Sequence record: SRR22947727_395
Reading direction: 5' to 3' (one strand)
DNA: 35,142 bases
The notes below the pieces were generated by a model, which saw only the letters and a list, made by a program, of their open reading frames with translations, searched no databases and had not been told where the DNA came from. A program made the position numbers and the translations under genes. Positions 1,356-30,221 of this stretch are shown here, piece after piece. How positions within the stretch are numbered: position 1 is the first letter of the stretch; every line of letters starts with the position of its first letter.

Positions 1356-1943
1356 TTAGTTATCACCATGCATGACCGTTATTTTATCTACGTCAATGCT
1401 ATCTACAAATGCTCGCAGGACCTTGGCACCTTGCTCCCACCCTTCTGCCTTGGCAATCTGACTGGCTTCCAACTGAGCCTGCTCCTGAGCCACGATATAA
1501 GCAAAAAATGATTGATACCTAGGGTCTGCAAGATCTCTTAACTGCTCAAGTTTAGGAATATAAGGAACAATTACCTTAATTAATGACTCCGGACTAAAGG
1601 TAATAAAATGTGTGGCAAAGCCTGCGGCATGGCCCCTAAAACGGGTAAACCAATTGGCGCTATAATTGAAGTTGAGTGCAGCGGCATTGCGCTTGTAGAT
1701 CACCTGATTAACCACTTCAAGGTCATAATATGCCTGATAAAAAACCCCTGCCGGCTCACTTTTAAGGACATGTGCGGCTTTTTGCATGCTCAAGTAAGCA
1801 AATGTGCGATTATCAAATTCATATTTCAACCGCTTTATATATAACGTTTTATCTTCAGCTTCTATTGCATTTATAGGCATGGCCATCACCATCAATATGT
1901 ACGCTGTTAAAAGTATCAGCCCTGTTTGTAATCTAACTCTCAC
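1356..1943 (-). CDS. Hypothetical secreted all-helical protein
   Basis: Long ORF. GTG 1943 follows GGAG by 6 nt and gives a Sec-like signal MRVRLQTGLILLTAYILMVMAMPINA. No family motif was recognised with confidence. Confidence 0.65.
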   Translation of the reverse strand: MRVRLQTGLILLTAYILMVMAMPINAIEAEDKTLYIKRLKYEFDNRTFAYLSMQKAAHVLKSEPAGVFYQAYYDLEVVNQVIYKRNAAALNFNYSANWFTRFRGHAAGFATHFITFSPESLIKVIVPYIPKLEQLRDLADPRYQSFFAYIVAQEQAQLEASQIAKAEGWEQGAKVLRAFVDSIDVDKITVMHGDN

Positions 1944-2014
1944 ATGGGTCTCCCAATAATTTTTATACAAATCTGTTCATATATTTCATCATATCTGACC
2001 GCTAACCATCGCTG

Positions 2015-2941
2015 TCAATCTTGCTGAAGCACTCGGCGCATAAAAGTGAATACAGAATCCCAATGCGCTATTGAGGGAGAAGATTTTGGCATCACATCCT
2101 CAAAAGCATGGGGGCCGCCTTCAGTGACCAAAAGCTCACAATCCACACCGCTGTCATTAAGACGTTGAGCATAAGCAATACTCTCCTCATAAAATAAATC
2201 TATATCACCTATGCCTAACCATGCCTGAGGAAGCCCATACAACGATTGACGGCGAGCGGCCACAGCATAAGCCGGGGCCTCAAGCAAGCCTGGCGACTGC
2301 CCCAAATAACAGGCCCAACCACCCCAGTTATTATCGTTATTCCAAAGAAAATGTTGCTGCTTGGTTAAATCCATTCGAGTCGCCGTGCGATCATCTAGCA
2401 TCGGACACAGAAGGAGCTGCGCCACCGGTTGCTGACCACCCTCATCATGGAGTCGCTGAGCCAGCGTTGCTGCCAGCCCCCCACCTGCACTCTGACCACC
2501 AATTACCACCAGTTGTGGATCAACACCCAAGTCACTGGCATTACCCTGCAACCATTGCCAACTTACGACTATGTCATCCAACGCTGCAGGAAAAGGTTTT
2601 TCTGGTGCCAGTCTATAGTCAACTGAGACCACGATGATGCCCAACGCCTCTATTATTCTGCGGATGGAAAGGTCATCCGAATTGGCATCACCAAGGAGGT
2701 AACCACCACCGTGAATCCACAACAAAGCCCCATTACTTTTCGGTACTAAAGGCTGATAAATTTTACTTCGGGATTGATCATGATCAATCCAGCTTACCTT
2801 AATATTTTGATCACCCTTAAATTTGGGTATCAATTTCAACAGACAGCTCACAACCATTCTGGTTATTGATTTTTCATAAGATAACGCTGGTATCCACCGA
2901 GCATAACCGCGCAACTCTGGATGTACCTTATCTAGGTTCAT
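2015..2941 (-). CDS. Alpha/beta hydrolase, HSL-family (family IV) esterase/lipase
   Basis: HGGG oxyanion motif, VDYRLAPE, GQSAGG nucleophile elbow, catalytic Asp (DIDLF) and His (GPHAF). Likely start is ATG 2941 (MNLDKVHPEL). Confidence 0.9.
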   Translation of the reverse strand: MNLDKVHPELRGYARWIPALSYEKSITRMVVSCLLKLIPKFKGDQNIKVSWIDHDQSRSKIYQPLVPKSNGALLWIHGGGYLLGDANSDDLSIRRIIEALGIIVVSVDYRLAPEKPFPAALDDIVVSWQWLQGNASDLGVDPQLVVIGGQSAGGGLAATLAQRLHDEGGQQPVAQLLLCPMLDDRTATRMDLTKQQHFLWNNDNNWGGWACYLGQSPGLLEAPAYAVAARRQSLYGLPQAWLGIGDIDLFYEESIAYAQRLNDSGVDCELLVTEGGPHAFEDVMPKSSPSIAHWDSVFTFMRRVLQQD

Positions 2942-3030
2942 AATCCATTCTCTTAAATCTTCGTCGTTAATGTGGCTATATGAATAGCTTGCGTATTTTA
3001 TTTCACCACAGGAACCGACCTGATGGAGTT

Positions 3031-3062
3031 CTCTCACCGACACTTGATCAGGCCAGTGAGAG
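3031..3062 (-). other. Intergenic stem-loop after the aldehyde dehydrogenase gene (stabiliser or weak terminator)
   Basis: Minus strand reads CTCTCACTGGC...GTCGGTGAGAG, an 11-bp stem with G-U pairs. There is no U-tract. Confidence 0.35.
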
Positions 3063-3071
3063 GCTCAGCGC

Positions 3072-4502
3072 CTATACAGATACTTTATTCAGGGTTGTCG
3101 TTTGCCAGTTAGTATATTCCATCAATCCATGCAGAGAATTCTCGCAACCTAAGCCAGACTGTTTATGCCCTCCGAACGCTTGAAAAGGAGAATATTGATG
3201 AATCTCATTTAGCCAAACAGTGCCGGCTTCAAGTTGGCTACCAATCCGCTGGATAGCTTCAAGATCATTGCCCCAGACTGAGGCACCAAGCCCATAAATC
3301 GTGTCATTGGCACGGGCAATAACATCAGCTTCATCTGACCATTTCATCAAAGGCAAAATTGGTCCGAAGGGCTCTTCCCTTACAATTCGAGAATCTTCTG
3401 GAGGATTATCGACTAATGACACCGGCACAAACCAACCAGGAGCACTCTCATCGATCTCACCACCAAGGGCAAATTTGTAACCATTGGCGTGACAGTCTGA
3501 GAAGTAATCTTTCACCTTGTCATACTGCATGGAGTTCTGGATTGGCCCCAAATCAGTATCAGCCTCAGTGCCATCGCCTACTTTAATATTGGTCGCAATA
3601 AAATCGGCCAGTGCGTCACGCACTTCGTCATAGACATCCTCATGGATATACAAACGTTTGGTCACATTACAGAATTGCGCATTATTCTGGAACGCAGCCC
3701 AGAATAATTGCGGTGCAATAGCTTTGGCGTCGACATCTGCCATAACAATTGCCGGATCGTTACCACCCAACTCCAGGGTAACGCGCTTGATGGTATCTGC
3801 CGCTGAACGCATTACATGTCGTCCAGTTTCCGTTGACCCTGTAAAGGCAATTTTATTGATATCAGGATGCGCGGTCATCCATTTACCTAAATCATCACCA
3901 CCACTGACTGCACTTAGCACGCCCGCTGGAAAAGCTTGTTGCGCCAACTCAACGATTTTGAGATCACAGAGTGGCGTGTAGGGCGAAGGCTTTACAATAA
4001 TGGTGCAACCGGCCATCAGCGCTGGTGCAATTTTCCATATCGCCAATAGAATAGGGAAATTCCAAGGCACAATAGCCCCAACCACTCCCACCGGGGTCAT
4101 GCGAGTGACAACCCGTCGTTCATCGGTATCTTCAATCTGCTCGTCTGGCAACCGTTGAGTTGCTATCGCGCGCAACCATGCAGCAGAACCAAACACTTCC
4201 CACTCTGCTCCAGCTCTCGGCTTGCCCTGCTCTCTTGTCAAAAGGCTCATAATATCTTCGGCATTTGCTTCAATAAGATCAGCATACGCCTCTAAGGCTG
4301 CTTGGCGCTCATCAACTGAGGTCTTACTCCACAGATTAAAAGCCTGGCGTGCTGTGCTAACAGTCTCATCAAGCTGTGCTTTGGATGCGTCAGGCACCTG
4401 TGCAAATACCGATCTGGTCGCAGGGTTATATACCGGCAGTGTATTTTCAGTGATCACCATTTGGCCATTAATGGTCATGGCAAAATCTGTGTCTATTTTC
4501 AT
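3072..4502 (-). CDS. NAD(P)-dependent aldehyde dehydrogenase
   Basis: PWNFP, FTGSTETG, catalytic Glu LELGGND, catalytic Cys QFCNVTKR, EEPFGP and FGGHKQSGLG. AAGGGGA RBS lies before ATG 4502. Confidence 0.95.
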   Translation of the reverse strand: MKIDTDFAMTINGQMVITENTLPVYNPATRSVFAQVPDASKAQLDETVSTARQAFNLWSKTSVDERQAALEAYADLIEANAEDIMSLLTREQGKPRAGAEWEVFGSAAWLRAIATQRLPDEQIEDTDERRVVTRMTPVGVVGAIVPWNFPILLAIWKIAPALMAGCTIIVKPSPYTPLCDLKIVELAQQAFPAGVLSAVSGGDDLGKWMTAHPDINKIAFTGSTETGRHVMRSAADTIKRVTLELGGNDPAIVMADVDAKAIAPQLFWAAFQNNAQFCNVTKRLYIHEDVYDEVRDALADFIATNIKVGDGTEADTDLGPIQNSMQYDKVKDYFSDCHANGYKFALGGEIDESAPGWFVPVSLVDNPPEDSRIVREEPFGPILPLMKWSDEADVIARANDTIYGLGASVWGNDLEAIQRIGSQLEAGTVWLNEIHQYSPFQAFGGHKQSGLGCENSLHGLMEYTNWQTTTLNKVSV

Positions 4503-4589
4503 CTCAAATCCCCTTTTCATTTTTTTAGATTAGTCAATGTTCTGGGCTAGTTTTGTAGTCCCGTTTTGTTTATTTGTAAAAAAGTTCTG

Positions 4590-6113
4590 TCAAGCGTCTA
4601 GCTTCTTTAACTCTCTGCGCATTACCTTGCCAGTACTGGTTTTGGGTAAGTCATCGACAAACTGCACAGCTCTAGGCACCTTGTAAGCTGCCAAATGCTC
4701 ACGGCAATAGGCAATAATGCTATCGCTATCAGGACTAACACCGGTTTTGGGTACAATATAGGCCTTAGCCAGTTCGCCTTTAGTTTCATCGGCAATACTA
4801 CCCACCGCCACCAGAGCTACATCAGGATGACCGGCTACCACTCGCTCGATCTCTGCGGGATACACATTAAAGCCAGCGGTGAGAATCATGTCTTTTTTGC
4901 GATCCACAATAAAGATACAGCCATCTTCGTCGATGGAAGCCAAGTCCCCTGTATGCAGCCAACCATCTGGCTCAATGGTCTCTCTGGTTGCCTTCTCGTT
5001 ACCATAGTATTCCTGCATAACGATGCCGCCCTTGATCATTAGTTCACCCACTTCACCCACAGGCATAGTGGTGCTGGCATCCTCAGTATCGGCAATGCGA
5101 GCCTCTGTATAGGGCAAGGCAATACCAATAGAACCGTGCTTGACCAGACCGTTGGAAGCGAATGTTGATCCCAATCCACCAATTTCGGTCATTCCCCAAA
5201 GCTCAATCAATGGGCAACCGAATCTCTGCTCAACTTCTACCATTTTCGGCGTGGGCATCGTCTGACCACCAACCGTACAGCAGCGCAGTGATGACAGGTC
5301 ATAGTTATCAAAGTCTGGATGGTTGAGCATAAACATGTACATGGTCGGCACACCCTCGAAAAGCGTGGCACCGTGATCCTGGATACTCTGCATGATAGCT
5401 TTCTCTTCGAAAGCGGGATGCAGTACCAAAGTCATGCCGTTTTGAATTGCGCCGCTCATAACAACATTGCCGTAAACATGTGGACAGGGTAATGCGGTGA
5501 CCACCGTATCTCGCTCGTTGCGCTGATGCATTAGGGCGGTCATGGCTATGTTCAGCAAAATGCTTCGATGGGATAGGCAAGCGCCCTTGGGAAAACCGGT
5601 AGTTCCAGAGGTGTAGCAAATAGTAGAGCGGGAATCAGTATCAATATCGCCGATACTGAAATCATCACTGCTATTAGCCAGTATTTCATTAAAGGACAGC
5701 AGTCCTGCAGGAAGAGCTTCATCACCAAAGACGATAATCTCTTTTACCTCAGATTTGTCTTTCACTCCCTGAAGAGGTAATGCTTTTTCATGAGAGGCTA
5801 TAATGACTGAGGCGCCACAGTCGCTGGCAACAAATTCAACTTCCGCTGGCGTGAGCATGACATTAATCGGGTTGATCACCGCACCCATTTTAAGGGCACC
5901 GTAATAGCTAACCACCCACTCCCAACAGTTCCCTGAATACAGGGTTACCCGATCGCCAGACTTTACACCAAGACCTTCCAGCGCATTGGCACAGCGATTT
6001 GTAAGCGCTTCCAGCTCGTTGTAGGAAAGAGACCGATCCGGCAAGATGAGTGCTGTCTTATTCCCAAAGCGTTTCGATGCCTCGAGTGGGATACTACCAA
6101 TTGAACTAAGCAT
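4590..6113 (-). CDS. AMP-forming acyl-CoA synthetase (fatty/aryl acid-CoA ligase family)
   Basis: YTSGTTGFPKG P-loop, WGMTE, GWLHTGD, VDRKKDMI and LPKTSTGK. AAGGAG RBS present. Confidence 0.95.
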   Translation of the reverse strand: MLSSIGSIPLEASKRFGNKTALILPDRSLSYNELEALTNRCANALEGLGVKSGDRVTLYSGNCWEWVVSYYGALKMGAVINPINVMLTPAEVEFVASDCGASVIIASHEKALPLQGVKDKSEVKEIIVFGDEALPAGLLSFNEILANSSDDFSIGDIDTDSRSTICYTSGTTGFPKGACLSHRSILLNIAMTALMHQRNERDTVVTALPCPHVYGNVVMSGAIQNGMTLVLHPAFEEKAIMQSIQDHGATLFEGVPTMYMFMLNHPDFDNYDLSSLRCCTVGGQTMPTPKMVEVEQRFGCPLIELWGMTEIGGLGSTFASNGLVKHGSIGIALPYTEARIADTEDASTTMPVGEVGELMIKGGIVMQEYYGNEKATRETIEPDGWLHTGDLASIDEDGCIFIVDRKKDMILTAGFNVYPAEIERVVAGHPDVALVAVGSIADETKGELAKAYIVPKTGVSPDSDSIIAYCREHLAAYKVPRAVQFVDDLPKTSTGKVMRRELKKLDA

Positions 6114-6194: not shown

Positions 6195-6941
6195 TCAGTC
6201 CTTCGCCTTTTTGAACTCAAAGGCCATGGCAATAATAGCCACGACCAGCAATACAGAGGCCCCTAGAAAAGAACCCTCTATATCCACCGAGCCTATTTCT
6301 CCCGCCCATAATGCCAACAGCGTTAATTGATAAATAACACCGAACAGGCCCAGAGAGACAGCGGCAATTTTTGTTGCCGTGGACGAGCTATACAATGGTA
6401 TTACTACAAGTAGTGCAAACAATGAGTACAGCCAGAAGCCTAAATAATCAAAAGAGGTGTACAGGGAAAAAGGTATGGATACATTCAAAATTCTCAACAG
6501 TGGATCGGCCAGCTCGCTCCCTACTGCGCCAGTTGAAATTGTGTTTGCAAGTAAAGGGATAGTCCACACGGCAATAAATTTGGGGATGATAAATGCCATT
6601 ACAGACATCAGCACCACCATGGCAGCAATGATGGCTCGCAATGGATTAGCACTGCCTATCCGCCAAGCAATAGCGAAAAACACCCCTGATAGACTCAGCA
6701 TAGCGACAATTTGATTTGCCCAGGCAGCAATAAATAGTTCTCTATTATTAATGAGCCAAGCCACCCGATCCGCGTGTTCCGCGTTATAACCGCCCGGTGC
6801 GTCCAGAGGGAGATAAACAGAAATGACGGCCGTCACAATGACAATAACGGCAGACCATAGGCCCAGCCTATTAATTTTTTCGTCCAGTGAAGTAAAAATA
6901 TCGATGATTGTCTCCCCATTGATTTCAAAGATTGTTTGCAT
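6195..6941 (-). CDS. Hypothetical integral membrane protein (about 6-7 TM helices)
   Basis: Multiple long hydrophobic segments. First gene of the leftward operon below the 7022 operator. Confidence 0.75.
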   Translation of the reverse strand: MQTIFEINGETIIDIFTSLDEKINRLGLWSAVIVIVTAVISVYLPLDAPGGYNAEHADRVAWLINNRELFIAAWANQIVAMLSLSGVFFAIAWRIGSANPLRAIIAAMVVLMSVMAFIIPKFIAVWTIPLLANTISTGAVGSELADPLLRILNVSIPFSLYTSFDYLGFWLYSLFALLVVIPLYSSSTATKIAAVSLGLFGVIYQLTLLALWAGEIGSVDIEGSFLGASVLLVVAIIAMAFEFKKAKD

Positions 6942-7013
6942 TGCCTACGGAAACGGCATCTTGACGATTATGCCAAGGGCTGTCGTACAACTGTAGAAAG
7001 CGTCTAAGCGGCT

Positions 7014-7042
7014 ATGCTAAAACATGTCTAGTGACATGTAAA
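7014..7042 (-). promoter_or_regulatory. Predicted sigma70 promoter containing perfect operator ACATGTC-TAGT-GACATGT (7022-7039)
   Basis: Minus strand reads TTTACA (7042-7037), 17 nt, TAGCAT (7019-7014). The palindrome fills the spacer. Confidence 0.75.
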
Positions 7043-7253
7043 GTGTCTGCAGAAATACGAATTCAGTTAAGACTGACTTGTCTTCATGGGCTTAGTAAAA
7101 AATAAATGCATAAGTTCTCATTCCCATAGGCATTCGCCAGATAGATAAGCCTGGCAAATAATCTAAGTCATAAATCTACGCAAAGTAAGTGAGGTATGAA
7201 TCCAGACTAGGAATCCATACCAAAGATAATGCCACGCATGCAAGGTGTAACGC

Positions 7254-7814
7254 TTAGGCGTCATCCCCATACGCATAGGTAATAAACTCATGAAATTTCT
7301 CTAGAACTTTGGACGAATCCTTTTCCCACCGCCTGCCGGATCCAACAAAAATTGTTGACCCCTCTGCCAAAGACAGCAGACAAAGCGCTTCAGCGCGGGG
7401 CGATGTGCTTCCAGATTTCTTAAGCAAATCTTCTAGTATTAATATGTACTCAGCGTATATGTCATCAACCAAGTCTGCCACTATAGGATGCACCTGCCCC
7501 ATCGCCCATAACTGCGGCCAAAGTTTGTCTACCTGTAAGTTTCCATCTGCCGGTTGGATCACAACAAGGTTCATCACCGCCTTAATACTGAGCTGCTGAT
7601 TAACTTTCATTAACTCAAACTTACTTCGATATGCCTCACTAGTATAAGCAACCAATGCTCGCAACATATCTTCCCAGGTGGGGAAATGGTATTGCAACCC
7701 ACCCAGCTGAATACCGTTTACGCGGGCCAGAGCTCGCATGGTCAGGTCGCCATAACCTTGATTTACTATAATCTCAATTGCAGCCTGCAGTATCTGTTGC
7801 TTGCGTTCACTCAT
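7254..7814 (-). CDS. TetR/AcrR family transcriptional regulator (paralog 1)
   Basis: N-terminal RKQQILQAA...GY..LTMRALAR..GI.LG.LQYHF helix-turn-helix; 186 aa. Confidence 0.93.
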   Translation of the reverse strand: MSERKQQILQAAIEIIVNQGYGDLTMRALARVNGIQLGGLQYHFPTWEDMLRALVAYTSEAYRSKFELMKVNQQLSIKAVMNLVVIQPADGNLQVDKLWPQLWAMGQVHPIVADLVDDIYAEYILILEDLLKKSGSTSPRAEALCLLSLAEGSTIFVGSGRRWEKDSSKVLEKFHEFITYAYGDDA

Positions 7815-7831
7815 TTAGTCTAGTCCCGTTG

Positions 7832-7874
7832 TTGACATAATAGCCAAAATAAACCAATATGTCGTATGACATGT
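7832..7874. promoter_or_regulatory. Overlapping divergent promoters with operator ATATGTC-GTAT-GACATGT (7857-7874)
   Basis: Minus strand toward tetR1: ACGACA (7865-7860), 17 nt, TATTAT (7842-7837). Plus strand toward the cupin: TTGACA (7832-7837), 17 nt, CAATAT (7855-7860). Operator is a 13/14 match. Confidence 0.7.
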
Positions 7875-8036
7875 TGTCATTGTTTGCCGCCGTAGAGCTC
7901 AGATAGCCGGCATCGGATTCTGAAAAATTTTGATTTGCCAGTCCTTAGTTGCTTTTTGCACGCTAGTTCATGCCTACCTACTCTCTGCCATCGATGCAGC
8001 AGAGCGGCCAATCAACGAAATCCAAGGATAATTATT

Positions 8037-8480
8037 ATGAAAAAATATCTCTTCTTACTCAGTGTACTTCTAAGCGCAACCAGTCTACATAGCCATGCCG
8101 CGCCTGAGGTCTTGCCACTTAAAACCAAAGCGATGCAGACGATGACACTCGACTCTATCCCTCCCTATCGTGCTGAAGATGTGCTTAAAGGAACAGGCGA
8201 GAATTGGCTCAATATTCTTCACCAGGGAGAAGTCATTGTAGCAATCTATGAAGCAAAGCCTGCACTGATCAATATTCAAAATCCATTTCCCTACGATGAG
8301 TTTGTTATGGTCCTTGAGGGTCAAGTGACGCTCACCCATATTAACGGGCAGGTACAAACCTATAACAAAGGTGACAACTTCCTGGTACCAAAGGGATTCC
8401 TGGGGACATGGGATATGCCAGAGCTCTATCGTGAAATGATCGTTATAGAGACCAAAGCATTCAATGCAACCAAAGATTAG
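8037..8480 (+). CDS. Secreted cupin (EutQ-like/DUF861 type)
   Basis: AAGGA RBS before ATG 8037. Signal MKKYLFLLSVLLSATSLHSHA. Cupin motifs FPYDEFVMVLEGQVTL and GDNFLVPKGFLGTW. Confidence 0.85.
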   Translation: MKKYLFLLSVLLSATSLHSHAAPEVLPLKTKAMQTMTLDSIPPYRAEDVLKGTGENWLNILHQGEVIVAIYEAKPALINIQNPFPYDEFVMVLEGQVTLTHINGQVQTYNKGDNFLVPKGFLGTWDMPELYREMIVIETKAFNATKD

Positions 8481-8554
8481 TTTTAGCGCTTATCCTGCGG
8501 ATCAACGTATGATCGAAGATCCCGCTAAAGCGAGCTTTTCCAATTACAGCATAT

Positions 8555-8589
8555 GGCGCTAATCTGATTTTAGTCTCAGATTAGTCGCC
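8555..8589. terminator. Inverted repeat between convergent cupin genes, probable bidirectional terminator
   Basis: GGCG-CTAATCTGA-TTTTAGTC-TCAGATTAG-T-CGCC. Confidence 0.55.
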
Positions 8590-8626
8590 TCCGTATATTT
8601 TAAAACCAAACCAACTTCAGCGACCT

Positions 8627-8995: not shown

Positions 8996-9056
8996 GCGGC
9001 ATCCTCAGAGTAACTTAATTATGATCTACAAATGCCATAAGATTGGGCACCGGAGT

Positions 9057-21509: not shown

Positions 21510-21516
21510 AGCGCAA

Positions 21517-22268: not shown

Positions 22269-22375
22269 CGATCATAGAATCCGTAACTTTTCCGACTGAG
22301 TAGTGAGTTTACAGAAAAGGATAGCCAGAGTCTCCCAAGATAGGATTATCTAGGTTTTTTAAATGGCTATGCGTG

Positions 22376-23011: not shown

Positions 23012-23013
23012 GG

Positions 23014-24885
23014 TCAGCTGACTACCTCCCCCACAGCACGAATCGACGCATCAATCGCCGACTGCACATAGGCATAGGCCTCGGAGTCAGAATTGGCAAT
23101 GCTGATTCGGCCAAAGGGCTGTCGTCCAAGCTCGTGAGGTGCCTGCCCTGGTTCCCAACGCGGGTCATGAAGATCCATATATTCATAGGCATAGCCATGG
23201 GACCAACGATTAATGGTAATGGCCTCAATATCCCTATCAGCATCAAAACCGGCCTCACCAAACATACCGGTAAGCTGATGTCGAATTTCTCGCTCATAGT
23301 CAGCAAATGAGGTGGCCATTATTTTGTGCCTGCCAAGCCGACAGAGATCGCGCCCAGATTGTTTACCATCACCCTCTGGTGCAGGCATATGCAGCATATA
23401 CATCACCATGGGGTCGTTCGGTTTGGTTGAAACCTGGTAAGCCCCCAAATTCACGGGCGGTGCGTGGGTGACCAACTCAAAAAAGGTATCAGCACAGACA
23501 TAGAGGGATGCACCACTTTTTCGCACGGGCGCACTGGTTTTAAGCACCACATTGGCACTGATAAAAGGAACTTTGGAACCATAGGCCAGATTTTGTTTCT
23601 GCGTCTCAGGTAGGTCTGGGCAGAGATGTGGAATCATGCCGTTGTATCCGGCAAGGATGCAATGCCTTCCCTGCACCCTAAAGGCACGATCGCCAGACAC
23701 ATAGGAAATATCGACCAGGTCTGAGCCCCTATTGGCAACATTAACCACCGTGCTATTTAAACGAATGCGCACTGGAGCATCTTGCAAATCCAATTGGGAA
23801 TAATCAAAACGACTGGCAACCAACTCCTCCATTGAATCGGCGCCCGCCACCTGAGGGATAAGTTTATTCACAAATAGTCTTGCCACAGAGGCATTACCAT
23901 CGGGGAAAATAGGTGAGCGGTACGCGTTGGGGTCCTCTGGCACATCAGACTCCCCATCTGATTCTGGGAAGCCCATGGCGTTGGCCCCAGGTGCTCCCAA
24001 CTCGATTGCTTCCATAATTGATGCACTGTTAATACCTACGCCCCATATAGCTCGAACCCAGGGTTCTGTTAATTTGGCGCCCTGCTTGGAGAGGCCAACT
24101 CGTTCATTGAGAAACCTGGCATATGAAGTGCTGCGCATATAGGTTTCTTTATCGGACAGGGGAATATCCGGCAAATAGTCTTTCTCACCACTGACCAGAG
24201 CAATCAGACGGCTAGTATCAGTGTTCGATAAATCCAGTGACTTAATCATCGCTTTATAGTCACCAGCACCCGCCCATGTGGACCCCCAATCACCTGAGAT
24301 AATAGTATCTTTGCCATACAGATTTTTATTCAAATAGATACCATAGGGCGCGGCTGCATTTGACAGCGGATAGTCATCTGGCCCTGCATCTTGCAGTGCT
24401 TTAAAGTCAACACCAATATCTTCAAGAACCTGATAGGCGCCGGCACTAAAAGCAGACTGCTCGAGGTTGAGACTACCGCCAGGACCCAGCAACATTTTGC
24501 CCGAAGACTCAAATTCGTTGCGCTTTGCATGGCCACCGAAATCATCATGGTTATCCAGCACTAGAATCTTTACATCGGGTCCCATTTGCTCCTTGTAGAG
24601 ATAAGCCGCAGACAGACCGCTTATGCCGCCGCCCACAATCACCAGATCATAAAGTTCATCTACTGGCTCATACTGTTCAGGTCTCTGCCCCCCCATAACC
24701 AGTGCGTGAGCTACTTCAAAGGACCCTTTGTGACTTCCGCGCATGCCTGTCAGCAGCGGTGGATAATACTCTGTGCCCTTAGCTGTGGTGCTGAATGCAA
24801 GAGAACTGTAAGGCGCAAGGGCGGTGGCCGCCACAGATAAGGCGGCACCATTTAAAAAATCTCGTCTGGTTATTTTATCTCTCAT
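23014..24885 (-). CDS. Tat-exported FAD oxidoreductase, spermidine dehydrogenase (SpdH)-like, paralog 2
   Basis: ITRRDFLNG Tat signal, YYPP.LTGMRGSH.GSFEVAH, DLVIVGGGISG, NHDDFGGHAKRNEF, FPDGNASVAR, NRWSHGYAY and GRISIANSDS. Confidence 0.88.
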   Translation of the reverse strand: MRDKITRRDFLNGAALSVAATALAPYSSLAFSTTAKGTEYYPPLLTGMRGSHKGSFEVAHALVMGGQRPEQYEPVDELYDLVIVGGGISGLSAAYLYKEQMGPDVKILVLDNHDDFGGHAKRNEFESSGKMLLGPGGSLNLEQSAFSAGAYQVLEDIGVDFKALQDAGPDDYPLSNAAAPYGIYLNKNLYGKDTIISGDWGSTWAGAGDYKAMIKSLDLSNTDTSRLIALVSGEKDYLPDIPLSDKETYMRSTSYARFLNERVGLSKQGAKLTEPWVRAIWGVGINSASIMEAIELGAPGANAMGFPESDGESDVPEDPNAYRSPIFPDGNASVARLFVNKLIPQVAGADSMEELVASRFDYSQLDLQDAPVRIRLNSTVVNVANRGSDLVDISYVSGDRAFRVQGRHCILAGYNGMIPHLCPDLPETQKQNLAYGSKVPFISANVVLKTSAPVRKSGASLYVCADTFFELVTHAPPVNLGAYQVSTKPNDPMVMYMLHMPAPEGDGKQSGRDLCRLGRHKIMATSFADYEREIRHQLTGMFGEAGFDADRDIEAITINRWSHGYAYEYMDLHDPRWEPGQAPHELGRQPFGRISIANSDSEAYAYVQSAIDASIRAVGEVVS

Positions 24886-24891
24886 TAATAA

Positions 24892-25335
24892 TTACTCTTC
24901 GCCTGCTACCCAGGCTTTGGTTTCAATAATAATCATCTCGCGAAACTTAACGGGCATATCCCAGGTTCCCTGCCAACCTTTTGGCACAAGAAAGCTATCT
25001 CCCACATCATAAGTCTGCTTTTCACCAGATAGAGAAGTAAGAATAACCTTGCCTTCCAAGACCGTCACAAACTCATCATAGGCAAACGGATAGCTCACAT
25101 CTATCAGAGCGGCCTCGGACTCATAAAGTGCGACCACAAAATCACCTTTATGCACCACTTTTTGCCAGTGCTCATTGGCGCCTGATAGGACCACCCCTTT
25201 TGGCCAAGGCGGAATAGACTCCAGCTCAGTCATCCTGAAGGCGTCCTTATCTAAGGGCAAAACGTCAATCACGGGTTGCGCCGATATTTGCATCGCAGCC
25301 ATAAATAAGGCTGCTAATAAATAAAATTTTTTCAT
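24892..25335 (-). CDS. Secreted cupin (EutQ-like/DUF861 type), paralog of 8037-8480
   Basis: Signal MKKFYLLAALFMAAMQISA; FAYDEFVTVLEGKVIL and GDSFLVPKGWQGTWDMP. Confidence 0.87.
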   Translation of the reverse strand: MKKFYLLAALFMAAMQISAQPVIDVLPLDKDAFRMTELESIPPWPKGVVLSGANEHWQKVVHKGDFVVALYESEAALIDVSYPFAYDEFVTVLEGKVILTSLSGEKQTYDVGDSFLVPKGWQGTWDMPVKFREMIIIETKAWVAGEE

Positions 25336-25380
25336 TGTTTACTCCATTTTCAGTTTTTGTCAGTGTTTTTATCAATCGGC

Positions 25381-27294
25381 TCAAGAGGGTTTTGCCGTTT
25401 GTTCTTCTACTGCCCGCCAAGCCGCGTCAAAAGCGGCTTGCATTAGGGGCATGGCCTCTGAATCAGAATTGGCAATTGAGATACGTCCAAATTGTGCCCG
25501 GCCAATCTCATGGGGTGCATGCCCCTCATCCCAGTCGGGATCATCAAGCCCCAGATAAGAGTAGGCATAACCATGGGGAATCCGATTAACTGTAATTGCC
25601 GTTATATCAGTCTTGTGATTAAAGCCATACTGACCCAGCATTCCCTGAAGCTGATCGCGAATCTGCTGCTCATAGTCTTTAAATGATGTGCCATAAATCT
25701 TGTAGCGACCCAGCCTAAATAGCTCACGCGCAGGCATATCTTTAATATCTGCTGGCGCAGGTGAGGCCATCATAAAGACAGCCATTGGATCGTCCTCGGT
25801 CTGAGGTGGCTGATAGCCCCCTGATGTTACTGTGGGCGCAGCGCTCACCCATTGAAAAGGATCATAGGGACATTGAGTAAAAGTCGTCTCAAGGCCAGCA
25901 AAGGCTCGACCATTTTTTAGCAGCACATTGGCATAGACAAAGGGCACCTTCACGCCATAGCTCAAACCGTCTTTTTGCTCTTGGCTCATGTCGGGGCAAA
26001 GATGTGGAATAAGCCCGTTATAACAAGCCAGAACACAGTGGTCTGCACTGACGCTAAAGGGCTGGCCTTGCTGAACATAATCGACCTTTACATGGTTTAC
26101 ATCTGTCTCTTTTACCCCTACCACTGTGCTATTGAGTCTCAAACGAGTCGGATTACTGTCAAGGTCCAAAGCTGCGTAGTTAAAGTCCGAAATGGCAACA
26201 TCTTCAAAGCCCTTCATAGCCGGTGCAACATCAGGAATTAACTTATGGACCAATAATCGGGCAACCGACGCATCGCCATCAGGAAACATATAGGCCACGG
26301 GAGCGTCCCCTAAAACAAAAGCGCCGGCGAGATCGCTGAGTCGATTGGTCAGCCAGCCCATAGCTTTTAGACCGGGGCAACCAGTACTCAGGGCTTCCAG
26401 GACTGTAAGGCTCCACCCCGCCGGGCCTAATAAAACACTGGTAAAAGCCCCCAGTATGGGCAAGGTTTCCTCAGCTAAACCAACGCGCTCGGTCAAAAAT
26501 TGGTTGTAACTGACGGACTTCACGTATCTGTATTGCTCCAAGAGAGACAAATCATCGAGGAAGTCTCGATCACCACCGAAAAAGGCAATCAACTTAGTCT
26601 GCTCTTCCTCAGGTATGGGCAACTCTTTAACCGCCGCCTCATATCCTTGACCCCCATGGATAAACCCTAACCAGTTGCCACTTAGGGTTTTATGGCCATC
26701 CGTAGTAGGAATCGTCATACCATTATTGGCGCTAATTTTGCCACCGAGCATATAATCATCAGGCGTATTGGCTGTCATTGCAGCTAGAGCCTGATCGTCA
26801 ATACCTATATCTTTTAATAATTCAACCGCCATTGCGCTATATGACGACATAGGCTCGATATTTTGAGCCCCACCCAAACCAAGTACCATATTCCCATCTT
26901 GATGAAATTCATTGCGCTTTGCATGCCCTCCAAAGTCATCGTGGTTGTCCAACAATAGTATCTTTGCGGTAGGGCCCATTTTCTTTCGGTAATACCAGGC
27001 AGCGGCCAGACCGCTCTGTCCTGCGCCTACAACTATTAGGTCATAGTGCTCATCTAATTCTTCATAACTGGACGGTTTTTGTCCATTCCAAGCTAGTGCA
27101 TGAGCAACCTCATAGGATCCCTCATGACTTCCGCGCATACCGGTCAGAGTCGGGGGATAATAATCACCGGGAGATTTTTTAGCGGCTATCGATCCAGCAG
27201 GTTGCGCGATAAGTTGTCCCGGCATCAAAAGGCTTGCACCGGCACCAATAGCGACACCATTAAGAAAATCCCTTCGCGTTATTTTAGAAGTCAT
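25381..27294 (-). CDS. Tat-exported FAD oxidoreductase, spermidine dehydrogenase (SpdH)-like, paralog 1
   Basis: ITRRDFLNG, YYPPTLTGMRGSHEGSYEVAH, VVGAGQSG, NHDDFGGHAKRNEF, NRIPHGYAY and GRISIANSDS. Confidence 0.88.
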   Translation of the reverse strand: MTSKITRRDFLNGVAIGAGASLLMPGQLIAQPAGSIAAKKSPGDYYPPTLTGMRGSHEGSYEVAHALAWNGQKPSSYEELDEHYDLIVVGAGQSGLAAAWYYRKKMGPTAKILLLDNHDDFGGHAKRNEFHQDGNMVLGLGGAQNIEPMSSYSAMAVELLKDIGIDDQALAAMTANTPDDYMLGGKISANNGMTIPTTDGHKTLSGNWLGFIHGGQGYEAAVKELPIPEEEQTKLIAFFGGDRDFLDDLSLLEQYRYVKSVSYNQFLTERVGLAEETLPILGAFTSVLLGPAGWSLTVLEALSTGCPGLKAMGWLTNRLSDLAGAFVLGDAPVAYMFPDGDASVARLLVHKLIPDVAPAMKGFEDVAISDFNYAALDLDSNPTRLRLNSTVVGVKETDVNHVKVDYVQQGQPFSVSADHCVLACYNGLIPHLCPDMSQEQKDGLSYGVKVPFVYANVLLKNGRAFAGLETTFTQCPYDPFQWVSAAPTVTSGGYQPPQTEDDPMAVFMMASPAPADIKDMPARELFRLGRYKIYGTSFKDYEQQIRDQLQGMLGQYGFNHKTDITAITVNRIPHGYAYSYLGLDDPDWDEGHAPHEIGRAQFGRISIANSDSEAMPLMQAAFDAAWRAVEEQTAKPS

Positions 27295-27353
27295 CTTTTA
27301 CCAGCCCTTATTGTTGGTTTATTAGTGCTCTGCATTTATTTTGCCTTTTTTGC

Positions 27354-27382
27354 ATTACATGTCGAATGACATGTGTTACGTT
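27354..27382 (+). promoter_or_regulatory. Perfect operator ACATGTC-GAAT-GACATGT (27357-27374) between the divergent spdH-like and iorAB-like operons, within a predicted iorA promoter
   Basis: Plus strand reads ATTACA (27354-27359), 17 nt ending TGT, then TACGTT (27377-27382). Confidence 0.78.
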
Positions 27383-27438
27383 AACACAGTAGAGAACCAC
27401 AAGTCGAGAACAGTTAAAGTCAGCTCCAAGGGATCAAT

Positions 27439-27960
27439 ATGATTAGCTTTGAATTAAACGGTAAAACAACAGAGGTGAGCGCAGCACCCGACACTCCCCT
27501 TTTATGGGTGATTAGAGATCACCTCAAACTTAAGGGCTCTAAGTTTGGCTGTGGCATGGGCCTATGCGGGGCCTGTAGTATGTTGGTTGATGGCGAATCT
27601 ACCCGCACATGTTTACTACCACTAGCCGCCATTCAAGGACGAAAAGTCACCACTATTGAAGGCATTGGTAATCCTGACATGTTATCGACACTTCAATCGG
27701 CATGGGTTGAAGCCAGCGTAGCGCAATGTGGCTATTGCCAAAGCGGCCAGTTAGTAAGTGCCACCGCTTTATTGAGTAAAAATAGCAACCCTAGCGACAA
27801 TGATATCGACCAGGCTATGAGTGGAAATATTTGCCGCTGCGGTACTTATCCCAATATCAAGAAAGCCATTAAACAGGCTGCAAAAAACTTGAGGAAGGAG
27901 AACGGCCAGTTACAGATCGTCGCTTATTTTGACCCTAATTCGATACAGCAAGAGGCTTAA
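27439..27960 (+). CDS. iorA: 2x[2Fe-2S] subunit of an isoquinoline-1-oxidoreductase/aldehyde oxidoreductase-type molybdoenzyme
   Basis: KFGCGMGLCGAC, TCLLP, QCGYCQSGQ and GNICRCGTY. Confidence 0.9.
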   Translation: MISFELNGKTTEVSAAPDTPLLWVIRDHLKLKGSKFGCGMGLCGACSMLVDGESTRTCLLPLAAIQGRKVTTIEGIGNPDMLSTLQSAWVEASVAQCGYCQSGQLVSATALLSKNSNPSDNDIDQAMSGNICRCGTYPNIKKAIKQAAKNLRKENGQLQIVAYFDPNSIQQEA

Positions 27961-30221
27961 TGATGGCAACTTCCCGCTCTACAGATATCGCTTTAAAAAC
28001 TGAAGGTGTCAATACCTCACGCCGTAGCTTTCTTAAAAACATGTCATTGGCCGGAGGCGGTTTGGTGGTTGGACTGCCATTAACCGCCTGTGCCAACATT
28101 TCACTGCCCAATGCAAGCGAATCAGCGTTACAGCCTAATGCTCTACTGCAGATTACCCGCGACAACGTAGTTAACTTCTACCTCCCTCGATCTGAAATGG
28201 GACAGGGCATCTATACGGGCCTAACTACTATTGTGGCAGAGGAATTGGACATCCACCCCGAGCGCATTAACGTCATTAATGCTGGACTACACGAGGACTA
28301 TAAAAATCTTGAATTCGAACTCCAGGTCACTGGTGGTAGCAATAGCATACGCACGCATTTTTTGCCCCTACGTCACCTCGCGGCCAATGCTCGCTTAGCT
28401 ATTCGACAAGCGGCTGGGCAACAGCTAAATCGTAATCTAGCTGATATACAGACCGATAACGGCAAAATCATAATTGATGGCAAAGCGGTTGATTATGGCG
28501 AATTCGCAGATTATGCCAATACACTGCCTTTTCCTGAAGACGCACCACTTAAAGATAAGCTCCAATTTAAATATATCGGCAAAGATAATCCAAGGCTCGA
28601 TGGAGTAGCCAAGGCGACAGGTACAGCACAATTTGGTATTGATGTTGACTTTGAAGGATTGTTTAGGGCGGCATTAAAACGATGCCCTGTTATGGGTGGC
28701 ACGGTAAAATCATTTGATGATACAGATGCCAAAGGAATGCCGGGCGTGAAGTCTATTGTTAAAATTCATAATGGCGTAGCAGTGATCGCAGATCATTATT
28801 ACCAAGCAAAAAATGCCCTTCCTAAGCTTAAGATACAATGGAATCTACCAGAGACTCTTTCAAAATTCAGTTCTGATTCAACAGCACCTGATAACGGCAA
28901 GGGCTTATTTAAAACAGCCTTAGATAGCGATAATGCTACCAATGTATTTGAAAAAGGTGAGGGGCTAAGTGCATTACAAAATGCACATGCAGTCATTTCA
29001 GCTGAATACTGGGCACCCTACTTGGCGCACGCCACCATGGAACCCATGAACTGTACGGCTAAATTAACCGACAACAGATTAGAATTGTGGGTCGGCTGCC
29101 AATCACCCGAGCTTGCCAAGAATTTAGCAGCTTACTATGCCGATGTACCGGCAGACAATATCATTATTCGCAGTACCTTTTTAGGGGGTGGTTTCGGCCG
29201 ACGTAGCGAATCTGATTTTGTGGCGGAAGCTGCGGCAATTGCAAAGGTATCTAACCTGCCGATTCAATTATGCTGGAGTCGAGAAGATGATATGCAAAAC
29301 GATAATTATCGTCCAGCGTCAATGGCAAGGTTTACAGTAGGTCTAAACAAAGCAGGCCTAATTGACAGCTGGACAGTGAAGCGTGCTGGGCCCCAACTGA
29401 TGCCCTATGTTATAGATAATTTAGTGGACGGTATCATGCCCAGCATACTACCCAACGCCTTTGTGGATTGGATGAGTAAAGTCGGCTACAGTCTTTATGA
29501 CAGTCTGCTTGTGGATCATACAAGCGTTGAAGGGCTATATGAAGACTATGACGCGCCCAATAAATCCTCTGATCATATCACCGCAGATCCTGGCCTGCCT
29601 GTTGGCGCTTGGCGCAGTGTTGGCCATTCTTATAGTGGGTTCTTTAAAGAAAGCATGATGGACGAAATCGCGGCCATTCAAAACCAAGATAGTGTTGAGT
29701 TTCGCCTTAAGCATTTAAAAAACAACCCTAAATTGGCTAACGTATTAAGCGTAGTTGCTGAAAAGTCAGGCTGGAATAAACCCTTACCCAAAGGCCATTA
29801 TCAGGGCGTGGCAGTCCACGCGTCCTTCAGTTCATTTGTCGCACAAGTTGCTCAAGTATCAGTTGTCGACAATCAGCTTTTTGTCCATAAAGTTACATGT
29901 GCAATTGACTGTGGCCTCGCGATTAATCCAGGCATCGTAAAAGCGCAAATGGAAAGTGGCATTATTGATGGATTAAGTGCCGCGTTGTATGGCGAAATTA
30001 CATTGAAAAATGGCGTCATCCAGCAAAGTAACTTCCATGATTATCCGGCCCTGCGCATCAATGAATCCCCTGAAATAGACGTAGTTATCATCGACAGCGA
30101 TGAGGCACCTACAGGTGTTGGCGAGCCGGGTTTACCCCCTATTGCGGCGGCCGTTGCCAATGCCATATTCGCGGCAACCGGAACGCGGTTGAGAAGCTTA
30201 CCCCTAAAACTGGAGGGTTAG
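27960..30221 (+). CDS. iorB: Molybdopterin-binding subunit, IorB-like, with Tat signal
   Basis: SRRSFLK Tat motif, RSEMGQG, TGGSNS, HATMEPMNC, GGGFGRR, WRSVGHS and GVGEPG. Start overlaps the iorA stop. The symbol denotes the family; the substrate is unknown. Confidence 0.88.
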   Translation: MMATSRSTDIALKTEGVNTSRRSFLKNMSLAGGGLVVGLPLTACANISLPNASESALQPNALLQITRDNVVNFYLPRSEMGQGIYTGLTTIVAEELDIHPERINVINAGLHEDYKNLEFELQVTGGSNSIRTHFLPLRHLAANARLAIRQAAGQQLNRNLADIQTDNGKIIIDGKAVDYGEFADYANTLPFPEDAPLKDKLQFKYIGKDNPRLDGVAKATGTAQFGIDVDFEGLFRAALKRCPVMGGTVKSFDDTDAKGMPGVKSIVKIHNGVAVIADHYYQAKNALPKLKIQWNLPETLSKFSSDSTAPDNGKGLFKTALDSDNATNVFEKGEGLSALQNAHAVISAEYWAPYLAHATMEPMNCTAKLTDNRLELWVGCQSPELAKNLAAYYADVPADNIIIRSTFLGGGFGRRSESDFVAEAAAIAKVSNLPIQLCWSREDDMQNDNYRPASMARFTVGLNKAGLIDSWTVKRAGPQLMPYVIDNLVDGIMPSILPNAFVDWMSKVGYSLYDSLLVDHTSVEGLYEDYDAPNKSSDHITADPGLPVGAWRSVGHSYSGFFKESMMDEIAAIQNQDSVEFRLKHLKNNPKLANVLSVVAEKSGWNKPLPKGHYQGVAVHASFSSFVAQVAQVSVVDNQLFVHKVTCAIDCGLAINPGIVKAQMESGIIDGLSAALYGEITLKNGVIQQSNFHDYPALRINESPEIDVVIIDSDEAPTGVGEPGLPPIAAAVANAIFAATGTRLRSLPLKLEG

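Follow-up and report, generated by a model that had tools for sequence, protein, structure and literature searches.

The DNA analysed here is a stretch of 35,142 nucleotides from sequence record SRR22947727_395 (hereafter the window, always at its full length), which most likely comes from the genome of a marine member of the Porticoccaceae. Six of its promoter regions share one 18-bp palindrome. Judged by its gene content and by the recurrence of the same families elsewhere, the window probably carries an enlarged version of a horizontally mobile regulon that is repressed by TetR and serves the uptake and periplasmic oxidative cleavage of polyamine-type amines. Free and acetylated polyamines are the likely substrates, probably together with larger or substituted ones.

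In the scheme we propose, two TetR-family repressors (TetR1 and TetR2) would bind the palindrome where it overlaps the -35 region of the six promoters, and a ligand would release them. TonB-dependent receptors (TBDRs) would bring the substrate into the periplasm, where two flavocytochromes b of the spermidine dehydrogenase type (SpdH1 and SpdH2) would cut C-N bonds to yield an aldehyde and an amine. Electrons would leave the surface heme of SpdH through an MsrQ-like membrane protein and enter the respiratory chain. Aldehydes would then be oxidised either by a periplasmic IorAB-like molybdenum enzyme or by a cytoplasmic aldehyde dehydrogenase (ALDH) followed by a CoA ligase, amine and amino-acid fragments would enter the cell via APC- and NhaC-type carriers, and an acetylpolyamine amidohydrolase (APAH) would deacetylate acetylated amines. 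An Ldi-like (linalool dehydratase family) hydratase/isomerase with a DsbA-like partner, a zinc-dependent alcohol dehydrogenase (Zn-ADH), and a pyrroloquinoline quinone (PQQ)/cytochrome c protein would serve as accessory modules for alcohol- or alkene-bearing fragments.

The palindrome has the consensus RCATGTCA-NN-TGACATGY, derived from 52 distinct sites in the window and in loci fetched from other genomes. Its core, TGTC-N4-GACA, matches the window exactly at eight positions (7025, 7860, 13422, 13436, 16135, 16219, 21528, and 27360), whereas shuffled sequences average 0.36 and never exceed 2; the 16-mer CATGTC-N4-GACATG with up to two mismatches gives nine matches where 1.71 are expected. The same operator sites are recovered by a motif-blind repeat finder as repeats D7, I12, I13, and I20. 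Intergenic DNA makes up only 8.6% of the window, yet it holds all eight cores (~3e-9 under random placement). The cores lie 44-166 nt upstream of start codons, and the site at the permease gene overlaps the listed GTG start. An earlier note on this DNA had claimed that six promoter regions share one operator and head the operons it named, and the position of all eight cores in promoter DNA bears this out.

Region (i) (6942-7253) carries operator O1 (7022-7039) upstream of an operon headed by memb248, the gene of a 248-residue membrane protein, and region (ii) (7815-7934) carries O2 (7857-7874) between tetR1 and cupinA. Region (iii) (13385-13791) holds two overlapping sites, O3 and O4 (13419-13450; repeat I20), upstream of TBDR1; the same double site precedes the TBDR1-PQQ pair of G005, a Porticoccaceae metagenome-assembled genome (MAG; locus L025). 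Between TBDR2 and the Ldi gene, region (iv) (16060-16285) contains O5 (16132-16149), O6 (16216-16233), and a third site with one mismatch at 16115, together spanning 16112-16233. Perfect 16-mers make up O7 (21525-21542), at the permease start in region (v) (21534-21707), and O8 (27357-27374), between spdH1 and iorA in region (vi) (27295-27438). Three of the operators overlap promoter-like -35/-10 matches, which point at memb248 (O1; 7042-7014), tetR1 (O2; 7865-7837), and spdH1 (O8; 27365-27338). A riboswitch was considered for the long leaders and set aside, as the window has no Rfam match and the explanation is thereby left unsupported.

The two candidate repressors are TetR1 (7254-7814, minus strand; TetR_N 5.4e-07) and TetR2 (21708-22268, minus strand; TetR_N 8.6e-10), the latter encoded by the last gene of the spdH operon. 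They are paralogues, with 61% identity and nearly identical helix-turn-helix (HTH) regions. Each has the N-terminal TetR HTH domain, and neither reaches the cut-off of any NCBIfam equivalog model. Searches of Pfam and NCBIfam found no other regulator in the window. The palindrome occurs in the regulators' own promoters as well as in those of the presumptive targets: tetR1 adjoins an operator lying upstream of it, and tetR2 closes an operon with an operator at its head. Operators of TetR-family repressors typically take the form of an 18-bp palindrome.

Regulator and site also follow each other across genomes. In a random sample of 151 genomes of the family, a TetR orthologue was detected in 6 (E up to 1e-25); eight genomes have a close SpdH1 orthologue, and these include all 6. 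In each of the 6 the TetR gene adjoins spdH, and in the two exceptions the gene stands at a contig end. A second comparison used carriers of the Ldi gene, for which one genome per species was scanned, yielding 21 loci in 19 genomes; most of these relatives are incomplete MAGs, and their genes were called with a simple open reading frame picker and BLAST against the window proteins. A TetR homologue is present in 15 of the 19 (E up to 1e-15). Twelve genomes have one of at least 37% identity, and 11 of these carry the operator while the twelfth carries a one-mismatch site; in the seven whose TetR is at most 32% identical or missing, the operator appears once, presence being scored for most genomes in the fetched loci and for a few in the whole genome. 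Of the 21 Ldi loci, 13 contain the exact core, which in 8 lies shortly before the Ldi gene; at that position locus L002 has a site with one mismatch. Genome-wide, perfect 16-mers occur in at least four places in a complete Luminiphilus genome, at least four in Pseudohalioglobus, and at least five in G005, and none was among the matches listed for two genomes whose TetR homologue is weak or missing. These data support one TetR-type regulon joining the operons, with the TetRs as its putative repressors.

Comparison with relatives separates a core from additions. In G005 the families are spread over four contigs, and every block has its own operator: spdH2-cupin-iorAB divergent from tetR; memb248-CoA ligase-ALDH; spdH1-cupin; MsrQ-like divergent from NhaC-amidase-APAH; receptor-esterase-204-residue protein; the double site with TBDR1-PQQ; and Ldi-Dsb-ADH. 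G244 (complete, 2.69 Mb) and G305 encode proteins 87-95% identical to those of the window and carry only spdH1-cupin-spdH2-MsrQ-like-tetR and memb248-CoA ligase-ALDH, to which G244 adds receptor/204-residue protein and NhaC-APAH blocks; all blocks in both genomes have operators. The family-sample search found no Ldi homologue in G244 or G305, and the regions fetched from them contain no PQQ or IorAB genes. The association of TetR, operator, SpdH, memb248, and ALDH extends to one contig each from Planctomycetia and Myxococcota and to two other MAGs. The invariant core is two SpdH paralogues, a secreted cupin, the MsrQ-like protein, TetR, the DUF4386-like memb248, CoA ligase, and ALDH. Frequent companions are APAH and its carriers, the receptors, and the esterase; accessory additions are Ldi-Dsb-ADH, the PQQ protein, IorAB, and a second TetR. 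On this division, the window is an unusually complete and contiguous version of the regulon.

Within 10 kb of Ldi, Zn-ADH is found at 11 of the 21 loci, APAH at 8, SpdH at 7, and a PQQ protein at 5, and receptors, cupins, the core CoA ligase, the esterase, and the DUF4386-like gene recur there as well. Ldi itself is sparse in random samples (2 of 201 genomes of the order, 1 of 151 of the family), too few carriers for a co-occurrence table. Identity at the Ldi locus is 90-95% in Porticoccaceae MAGs, 75-80% in Luminiphilus, Halioglobus, Pseudohalioglobus, and other Halieaceae, 73% in Pseudomonadales MAGs, 74-76% in Myxococcota and 'Deltaproteobacteria' MAGs, 74-75% in Planctomycetota, and 58% in a Woeseia MAG. 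Between the gammaproteobacterial form and those of the Myxococcota, Deltaproteobacteria, and Planctomycetota MAGs (L005, L006, L011, L012, and L020), the Ldi proteins are 73-76% identical. Such high identity across phyla points to horizontal transfer, and specifically to a recent spread of one Ldi subfamily together with the operator. Two of the loci have further content of their own: in L012 (Planctomycetia) and L006 ('Deltaproteobacteria') an operator-bearing long receptor-like gene is followed by a sulfatase gene and one for a large tetratricopeptide repeat (TPR) protein (L012:14473-16002, L006:16472-17887), and in L012 a gene for a DAO-type FAD oxidase precedes Ldi. Two cultured carriers are Luminiphilus sp. 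nBUS_07 and Pseudohalioglobus sediminis NY5.

The substrate class rests chiefly on SpdH and APAH. SpdH1 (25381-27294, minus strand; 1.6e-125 to PDB entry 7d9i) and SpdH2 (23014-24885, minus strand; 1e-136) are core, twin-arginine-exported FAD/heme b amine dehydrogenases that match the Pseudomonas aeruginosa enzyme 7d9i over their full length (residues 5-631 on 3-618 and 5-620 on 3-618, respectively). Both have the N-terminal FAD-binding Rossmann motif (NAD_binding_8, 2.2e-10 for SpdH1 and 1.5e-10 for SpdH2). They are 47% identical to each other, with the heme-ligand histidines kept. In SpdH, the ligands of the surface-exposed heme b are His54 and His562 (PMC12564564, in part); both align in SpdH2, and in SpdH1 by way of the pairwise alignment. 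The core cupin gene cupinC (24892-25335, minus strand; secreted, Cupin_3 1e-10) lies between the two spdH genes, as does its counterpart in G244 and G305. SpdH homologues occur in 19 of 19 Ldi-bearing genomes, with 2-10 matches each, whereas the family sample yields them in 22 of 151; 12 of the 19 also have APAH. Multiplication is strongest in G364, the Woeseia MAG (10 matches), and G001, a Luminiphilus genome (6 matches), with E up to 1e-50, which suggests amine dehydrogenases of differing substrates. Two Luminiphilus genomes have an SpdH2-like gene broken into frames of ~221 and ~432 residues (L003:17830-19742; G353:C6:716745-718624); this could reflect a frameshift that both retain or a gene genuinely in two parts.

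The gene for the core MsrQ/ferric-reductase-like membrane protein (22376-23011, minus strand; 211 residues) follows spdH2. Its MsrQ match is weak (E 0.0089), and a language-model feature score of 0.98 to the Ferric_reduct cluster serves as a lead. H113 and H152 are invariant in seven of seven sequences. The spdH and MsrQ-like genes are adjacent in the window, G244, G305, G002 (L030), and G356 (L038); G355 has them side by side, each on a different strand. In most relatives the adjoining spdH gene is spdH2. Structure prediction of an SpdH/MsrQ-like complex scored 0.50 against 0.02 for the best of three controls. Of 78 solved complexes 51 attain this mark, as do 2 of 108 mismatched pairs; the range it falls in (0.60 or below) contains only 5 of the 78 and all four mismatches that passed. 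Three runs share at least 70% of contacts, with a partner pLDDT of at least 80. The model tentatively suggests a contact by which SpdH may pass electrons to the MsrQ-like protein.

APAH (327-1328, plus strand; Hist_deacetyl 2.8e-70) gives full-length matches to the solved enzymes 6phr (2.8e-131; residues 2-331 on 17-346) and 3q9b (3.8e-128), a comparison of whole sequences rather than of single metal-binding residues. Upstream of it, the window opens with the 3' end of a gene for an NhaC-family transporter (2-103, plus strand) that matches the C-termini of NhaC-like proteins in G005 (L024) and G244 (L034), and in both genomes the NhaC-like genes precede the amidohydrolase gene. The NhaC-APAH operon begins to the left of the window. 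Between the two genes is a 59-codon remnant of a twin-arginine-signal amidase (137-316, plus strand), which matches approximately the first 47 residues of the G005 amidase before it diverges and stops. The intact G005 enzyme (516 residues, L024:11294-12844; PRK07486, 711.9 bits) sits between an NhaC-type carrier and APAH; in the window all of the gene except this stub, which includes the twin-arginine motif, has been lost. With a true APAH and two real SpdH homologues present, polyamines, including acetylated or extended derivatives, are better candidates than the alkaloid-like compounds that the earlier note, which missed APAH, had among its examples. On the strength of SpdH and APAH we infer a polyamine-like substrate class. 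Larger or substituted amines are suggested by the receptors, a CoA ligase of fatty/aryl type, the esterase, the amidase found in relatives, and the multiplied SpdH genes.

Among the additions is the secreted Ldi-family protein (16286-17947, plus strand; 553 residues). It is placed in the family by PF18566 (2.6e-79; 267.5 bits against a cut-off of 26.1), and its match to solved LinD reaches only 7e-12. A structure model built from 52 family members has a pLDDT of 90.7; an earlier model from 10 homologues (pLDDT 47) was not used. The model has an (alpha/alpha)6 fold, and its top 27 Foldseek matches are LinD chains (E ~3e-14, TM by target 0.70-0.74, 20-21% identity). GH127 cysteine glycosidases, considered as closer kin, rank after LinD in this search with TM of only 0.2-0.3 and were rejected. 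Residues C232 and C241 align with C171 and C180 of LinD and are invariant in 10 of 10 close homologues; among the 52 wider family members C241 is invariant and C232 is at least 90% conserved. In LinD this pair (Cys170/179, C171/C180 in PDB numbering) must stay reduced for all reactions (PMC6600392). The equivalents of LinD Met125 and His129 are also kept. The Cys48-Cys101 disulfide that caps LinD is absent, as the Ldi-like protein has two cysteines only and a Tyr at the second Cys position. An extra conserved C-terminal beta-sandwich of ~100 residues (about 448-545) sets it apart from a single-domain LinD of ~370-400 residues.

The gene for a DsbA-like thioredoxin-fold lipoprotein (17947-18771, plus strand; DSBA 5.4e-19, CMPC motif, lipobox) overlaps the Ldi stop codon. 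A Dsb gene is directly downstream of Ldi in 18 of 21 loci; the remaining three stop within Ldi or right at it. Because the Ldi-like protein lacks a structural disulfide, its partner may serve to control the redox state of the two catalytic cysteines instead. The Ldi family comprises 660 clusters at E <=0.001 and 93 at <=1e-30 among 1.84 billion representatives (50% identity); the subfamily described here is one cluster, with its next relatives 38-43% identical. Only two family members have been characterised (PMC6600392). We found no compelling role for the Ldi-like protein, and an unsaturated alcohol or aldehyde fragment is the natural guess for its substrate.

The remaining genes of the window, which holds 26 long open reading frames, were identified through Pfam, NCBIfam, and PDB searches. 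Export signals were judged by eye at the N-termini and are seen in nine proteins (cupinA, the PQQ protein, Ldi, Dsb with its lipobox, SpdH1, SpdH2, cupinC, IorB, and a 204-residue protein), in agreement with the earlier count of at least nine non-receptor exported products; a twin-arginine model also scores SpdH1, SpdH2, and IorB. The operon under O1 runs on the minus strand. It is headed by memb248 (6195-6941), which has no Pfam match and whose DUF4386-like assignment is a lead from a language-model feature score (0.98 to DUF4386 clusters); memb248 heads the CoA ligase-ALDH operon in every relative examined. The core acyl/aryl-CoA ligase (4590-6113; AMP-binding 2.3e-87) scores 472.8 against the PRK06187 cut-off of 476, with FadD13 and feruloyl-CoA synthetase as its nearest structures (~1e-76). 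It is followed by the core NAD(P)-dependent ALDH (3072-4520; Aldedh 6.1e-148), for which the nearest NCBIfam models, phenylacetaldehyde and aminobutyraldehyde dehydrogenase, are all below cut-off. Next come a hormone-sensitive-lipase-type esterase (2015-3043; Abhydrolase_3 2.5e-55; LipP1/HSL models below cut-off) and the 204-residue protein (1356-1970), which has an N-terminal hydrophobic signal and no Pfam or NCBIfam match; its orthologues adjoin a TBDR and an esterase in G005 and G244.

To the right of tetR1 lie cupinA (7935-8480, plus strand; secreted, Cupin_3 5.1e-10), which likely starts at ATG 8037 with its signal peptide after the internal Met, and cupinB (8627-8995, minus strand; cytoplasmic, Cupin_3 1.2e-14). 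Of the window's three cupins, two are secreted and cupinB is not; all are poor in histidine, and visual inspection shows no metal-binding motif in them. Cupins of this type in relatives are nearly always encoded next to SpdH or the PQQ protein. The latter is a secreted PQQ-type beta-propeller (9057-11018, minus strand; PQQ_2, PQQ, Cytochrome_CBB3) that is distant from known enzymes (TIGR03075, 88 bits against a cut-off of 480; best structure PQQ alcohol dehydrogenase 7wmd, 5.2e-13). Type II PQQ alcohol dehydrogenases (quinohemoproteins) have a C-terminal cytochrome c domain; in this protein the domain is N-terminal (residues 39-102). TBDR1 (11120-13384) and TBDR2 (13792-16059), both on the minus strand with Plug and TonB_dep_Rec_b-barrel domains, are 24-36% identical, in patches only, and no substrate-specific NCBIfam model reaches its cut-off for either. 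Weak scores against the siderophore-receptor subfamily (161 and 134 bits, with a cut-off of 223.5) led us to consider siderophore uptake for them, which was rejected because the window has no iron-related or biosynthesis gene.

Downstream of Ldi-Dsb is the Zn-ADH gene (18915-20015, plus strand; ADH_N, ADH_zinc_N; class III-like models below cut-off). Directly ahead of it, at 18888-18916, is the site that scores best in the entire promoter scan (10 of 12); no operator is near, so ADH may also be transcribed alone, outside TetR control. The APC-family amino acid/amine permease (20139-21533, minus strand; AA_permease_2 1.2e-41) probably starts at an ATG 24 nt inside the listed GTG. On the far side of O8, iorA (27439-27960, plus strand; Fer2_2 7.5e-29; PaoA-like models below cut-off) encodes the 2Fe-2S small subunit of a molybdenum aldehyde oxidoreductase, and iorB (27960-30221, plus strand; MoCoBD_1, MoCoBD_2) encodes its molybdopterin large subunit, twin-arginine-exported by the model match. 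Both subunits of a molybdenum-dependent aldehyde dehydrogenase are therefore present, and IorB matches the large subunit of a membrane-bound aldehyde dehydrogenase (8gy3_C, 5.1e-73) over its full length. Three-subunit membrane-bound enzymes of this kind have a cytochrome c subunit co-encoded with the other two; no cytochrome c gene lies beside iorAB in the window, where the only such domain is that of the PQQ protein. A second acyl-CoA ligase gene (30277-31926, plus strand; AMP-binding 5.2e-56) begins 55 nt downstream of iorB and possibly belongs to the same operon and regulon, a position that is not kept in G005. For the receptors, cupins, ALDH, ADH, and CoA ligases alike, no NCBIfam model gives a name above cut-off, and the substrate is not narrowed by them; the esterase, the permease, and both CoA ligases have superfamily matches and no specific curated model. 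Finally, guaA and guaB flank the cluster on the right (32070-35084), and a guaBA pair lies ~7 kb from the spdH1-cupin block in G005 (L023), which indicates that the right border is conserved.

RNA libraries also contain sequence close to that of the window. Of the words sampled from 16000-25999, 22-69% are present in each of six metatranscriptome runs, and in four of these runs, from four studies, contigs cover 29-30 of the 30 bins of 8000-27999 at 95% identity or more. One such contig (run X14, record 1) joins 8000-9946 to 22097-22208 with 245 other letters between, which indicates a related strain with the cupinB/PQQ block beside the tetR2 region.

Several observations weigh against a polyamine regulon as we describe it. 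The SpdH paralogues are an estimated ~40% identical to the characterised enzyme, and the substrates of SpdH homologues below 50% identity are unknown (PMC12564564, in part). The core CoA ligase resembles ligases of fatty and aryl acids, a misfit with the ordinary polyamine products gamma-aminobutyric acid (GABA) and beta-alanine, and ALDH, Zn-ADH, the PQQ protein, and the receptors fall below the cut-off of every specific NCBIfam model. To our knowledge, small polyamines do not need TonB receptors, and we know of no call in polyamine chemistry for an Ldi-type enzyme, an esterase, or a PQQ dehydrogenase. Statistical points belong here too: the TetR/SpdH1 association in the family sample (Fisher 1.9e-9) is uncorrected for shared ancestry, and promoter-like matches number 20 in the whole scan against 23.7 expected, no excess over chance. 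The RNA libraries, with uncontrolled DNA carry-over and neither expression levels nor transcript ends to be read from them, attest presence only.

In a narrower reading, the regulon would serve one class of bulky substituted amine (an acyl-, aryl-, alkyl-, or prenyl-amine, or a long-chain polyamine) that is imported by the receptors and cut in the periplasm, its amine half entering through the permease, its hydrophobic half passing through ADH, ALDH, and CoA ligase, and Ldi acting on its allylic alcohol. We hold this possible, but doubtful. Receptors stand under the operator in both window and relatives, the invariant core ties SpdH to a membrane protein, ALDH, and a fatty/aryl-type CoA ligase, an esterase (in G005 also a periplasmic amidase) is under the same control, and SpdH is present in 2-10 copies per genome; moreover Ldi, Zn-ADH, ALDH, and CoA ligase resemble the order of steps in monoterpene alcohol breakdown in Castellaniella. 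Against these, the operator-controlled core is kept without Ldi, which is found in 1 of 151 family genomes against 6 of 151 for TetR, PQQ and IorAB are missing from the fetched core regions of G244 and G305, and APAH is orthologous to enzymes that act on small acetylpolyamines. We also know of no compound that combines all the required groups and abounds in sea water. A single bulky substrate needing every enzyme, as the earlier note had it, is weakened by relatives that keep the SpdH core and in which no Ldi homologue was found, and by the accessory nature of Ldi-Dsb-ADH, the PQQ protein, IorAB, and the second TetR. More speculative still is a TonB-dependent, respiration-coupled route for large or substituted polyamines, for example long-chain ones from silica-forming algae or polyamines with alkyl, acyl, or prenyl groups. 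In it, SpdH paralogues would strip off units in the periplasm, the MsrQ-like cytochrome would channel the electrons to the membrane, Ldi would handle an unsaturated alcohol or aldehyde fragment so released, and the dedicated DsbA-like lipoprotein would maintain the proper redox state of its two catalytic cysteines within an aerobic periplasm. If true, this would give the Ldi family its first physiological role outside anaerobic monoterpene degradation.

A looser arrangement, in which separate modules for periplasmic amine, alcohol, and aldehyde oxidation answer to a TetR that senses a shared toxic intermediate such as an aldehyde, appears unlikely. Blocks are indeed lost, gained, and rearranged between relatives, each keeping its own operator, and the RNA-library contig displays another gene order; aldehydes are a common product of SpdH, PQQ, and ADH reactions. 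Yet the same families occur together across three phyla around an invariant core of SpdH, TetR, ALDH, and CoA ligase, and this co-travel argues for a shared substrate class rather than loose co-regulation. We give very little credence to a pathway mainly for isoprenoid or monoterpene alcohols, of the LinD/GeoA/GeoB type, with amine enzymes as incidental neighbours. The LinD fold and catalytic cysteines of the Ldi-like protein, the Zn-ADH gene that follows it, and the presence of ALDH and CoA ligase in the regulon are what such a pathway would offer, but the spdH genes carry the same operator, SpdH accompanies Ldi in all 19 genomes that have it, the Ldi module is a dispensable part, and identity to LinD is ~20% with the structural disulfide missing. 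Least probable of all is that the palindrome binds a regulator other than TetR1 or TetR2, or is no protein-binding site. A simple scan does score it as a terminator-like hairpin at 7855-7876 and 21542-21525; however, every site is upstream of genes and none downstream, site presence tracks the TetR orthologue from genome to genome, the TetRs are the only regulators found in the window, and the palindrome has the form and length usual for operators of this family. The preferred reading is a TetR-controlled regulon for polyamine-type amines.

Much of the earlier account survives this analysis. Its gene calls agree with the Pfam, NCBIfam, and PDB results, and its proposal of one TetR regulon is strengthened because operator, TetR orthologue, and gene families recur jointly in Porticoccaceae, Halieaceae, Myxococcota, and Planctomycetota, also where the genes are scattered across several contigs; failure of the families to co-occur elsewhere had been set beforehand as grounds for abandoning the idea, and they do co-occur. 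Gene content fits the periplasmic C-N cleavage by SpdH, the IorAB-like aldehyde oxidation, and the ALDH/CoA-ligase branch that it envisaged. The limits it drew, 1356 to 30221, are too narrow, as the system extends past both ends, with APAH and the NhaC 3' end on the left and possibly the second CoA ligase on the right.

The note had also known of no described pathway with this combination, and the literature searched yielded none. No paper was found that joins linalool dehydratase with spermidine dehydrogenase, or linalool dehydratase with marine and TonB-dependent. For spermidine dehydrogenase with TonB-dependent, nothing pertinent appeared in the records seen (carboxyspermidine dehydrogenase; a P. 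aeruginosa transcriptome). By title and abstract, the linalool dehydratase/PF18566 literature concerns terpene, flavour, and biocatalysis topics, and titles and abstracts on SpdH describe no such cluster. Spermidine dehydrogenase with acetylpolyamine and marine returned only the review PMC9397018, itself consulted in excerpt, and nothing pertinent was among the matches listed for the carrier taxa with spermidine. Within the literature searched the system is undescribed; it is a new variant of SpdH-based polyamine catabolism and of TetR regulons, and introduces no new principle. Polyamines are a known part of marine dissolved organic nitrogen (PMC8437039, in part), and the bacterial polyamine routes described in the excerpt of PMC9397018 are cytoplasmic or use a single SpdH. 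The regulon would add a route from the outer membrane to the respiratory chain. It also gives a genomic context, and hence testable substrates, to the multiplied SpdH paralogues, the Ldi family, and the DUF4386-like and MsrQ-like membrane proteins. Its own cis-element makes the regulon predictable in any genome that carries the TetR, and the two cultured carriers make such predictions directly testable.

Among known systems, the closest in chemistry is the SpdH and KauB pathway of P. aeruginosa, in which SpdH cleaves a C-N bond to give an aminoaldehyde and an amine and an aldehyde dehydrogenase follows (PMC9397018, in part). The window shares with it an FAD/heme b SpdH that has both heme ligands and an ALDH to act afterwards. 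It differs in having two paralogues per operon, with up to 10 per genome in relatives, and in embedding SpdH in a TetR regulon with TonB receptors, cupins, the MsrQ-like and DUF4386-like proteins, CoA ligase, APAH, a molybdenum-dependent aldehyde dehydrogenase, and the Ldi-like protein, partners that the excerpt of PMC9397018 does not mention for the Pseudomonas pathway. APAH resembles the solved 6phr and 3q9b over its full length, and departs from them in its setting, since in relatives it lies under the TetR operator with NhaC-type carriers and in G005 also with the twin-arginine-signal amidase.

IorAB shares its large molybdenum subunit, 2Fe-2S subunit, and twin-arginine signal with IorAB-type enzymes and with the aldehyde dehydrogenase of acetic acid bacteria (8gy3), and differs from the latter in lacking an adjacent gene for a cytochrome c subunit. 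Like other TetR catabolic repressors, the regulators have an N-terminal HTH and a palindrome in target promoters as well as their own, and here there are two paralogues. With LinD of Castellaniella defragrans, the Ldi-like protein has in common the Pfam family, the (alpha/alpha)6 fold, a Sec signal (by eye), the cysteine pair, and the Met125/His129 equivalents. It is set apart by ~20% identity, the added beta-sandwich, and the absent capping disulfide, and by its pairing with a DsbA-like lipoprotein, in aerobic marine bacteria, within a regulon that also contains amine dehydrogenases.

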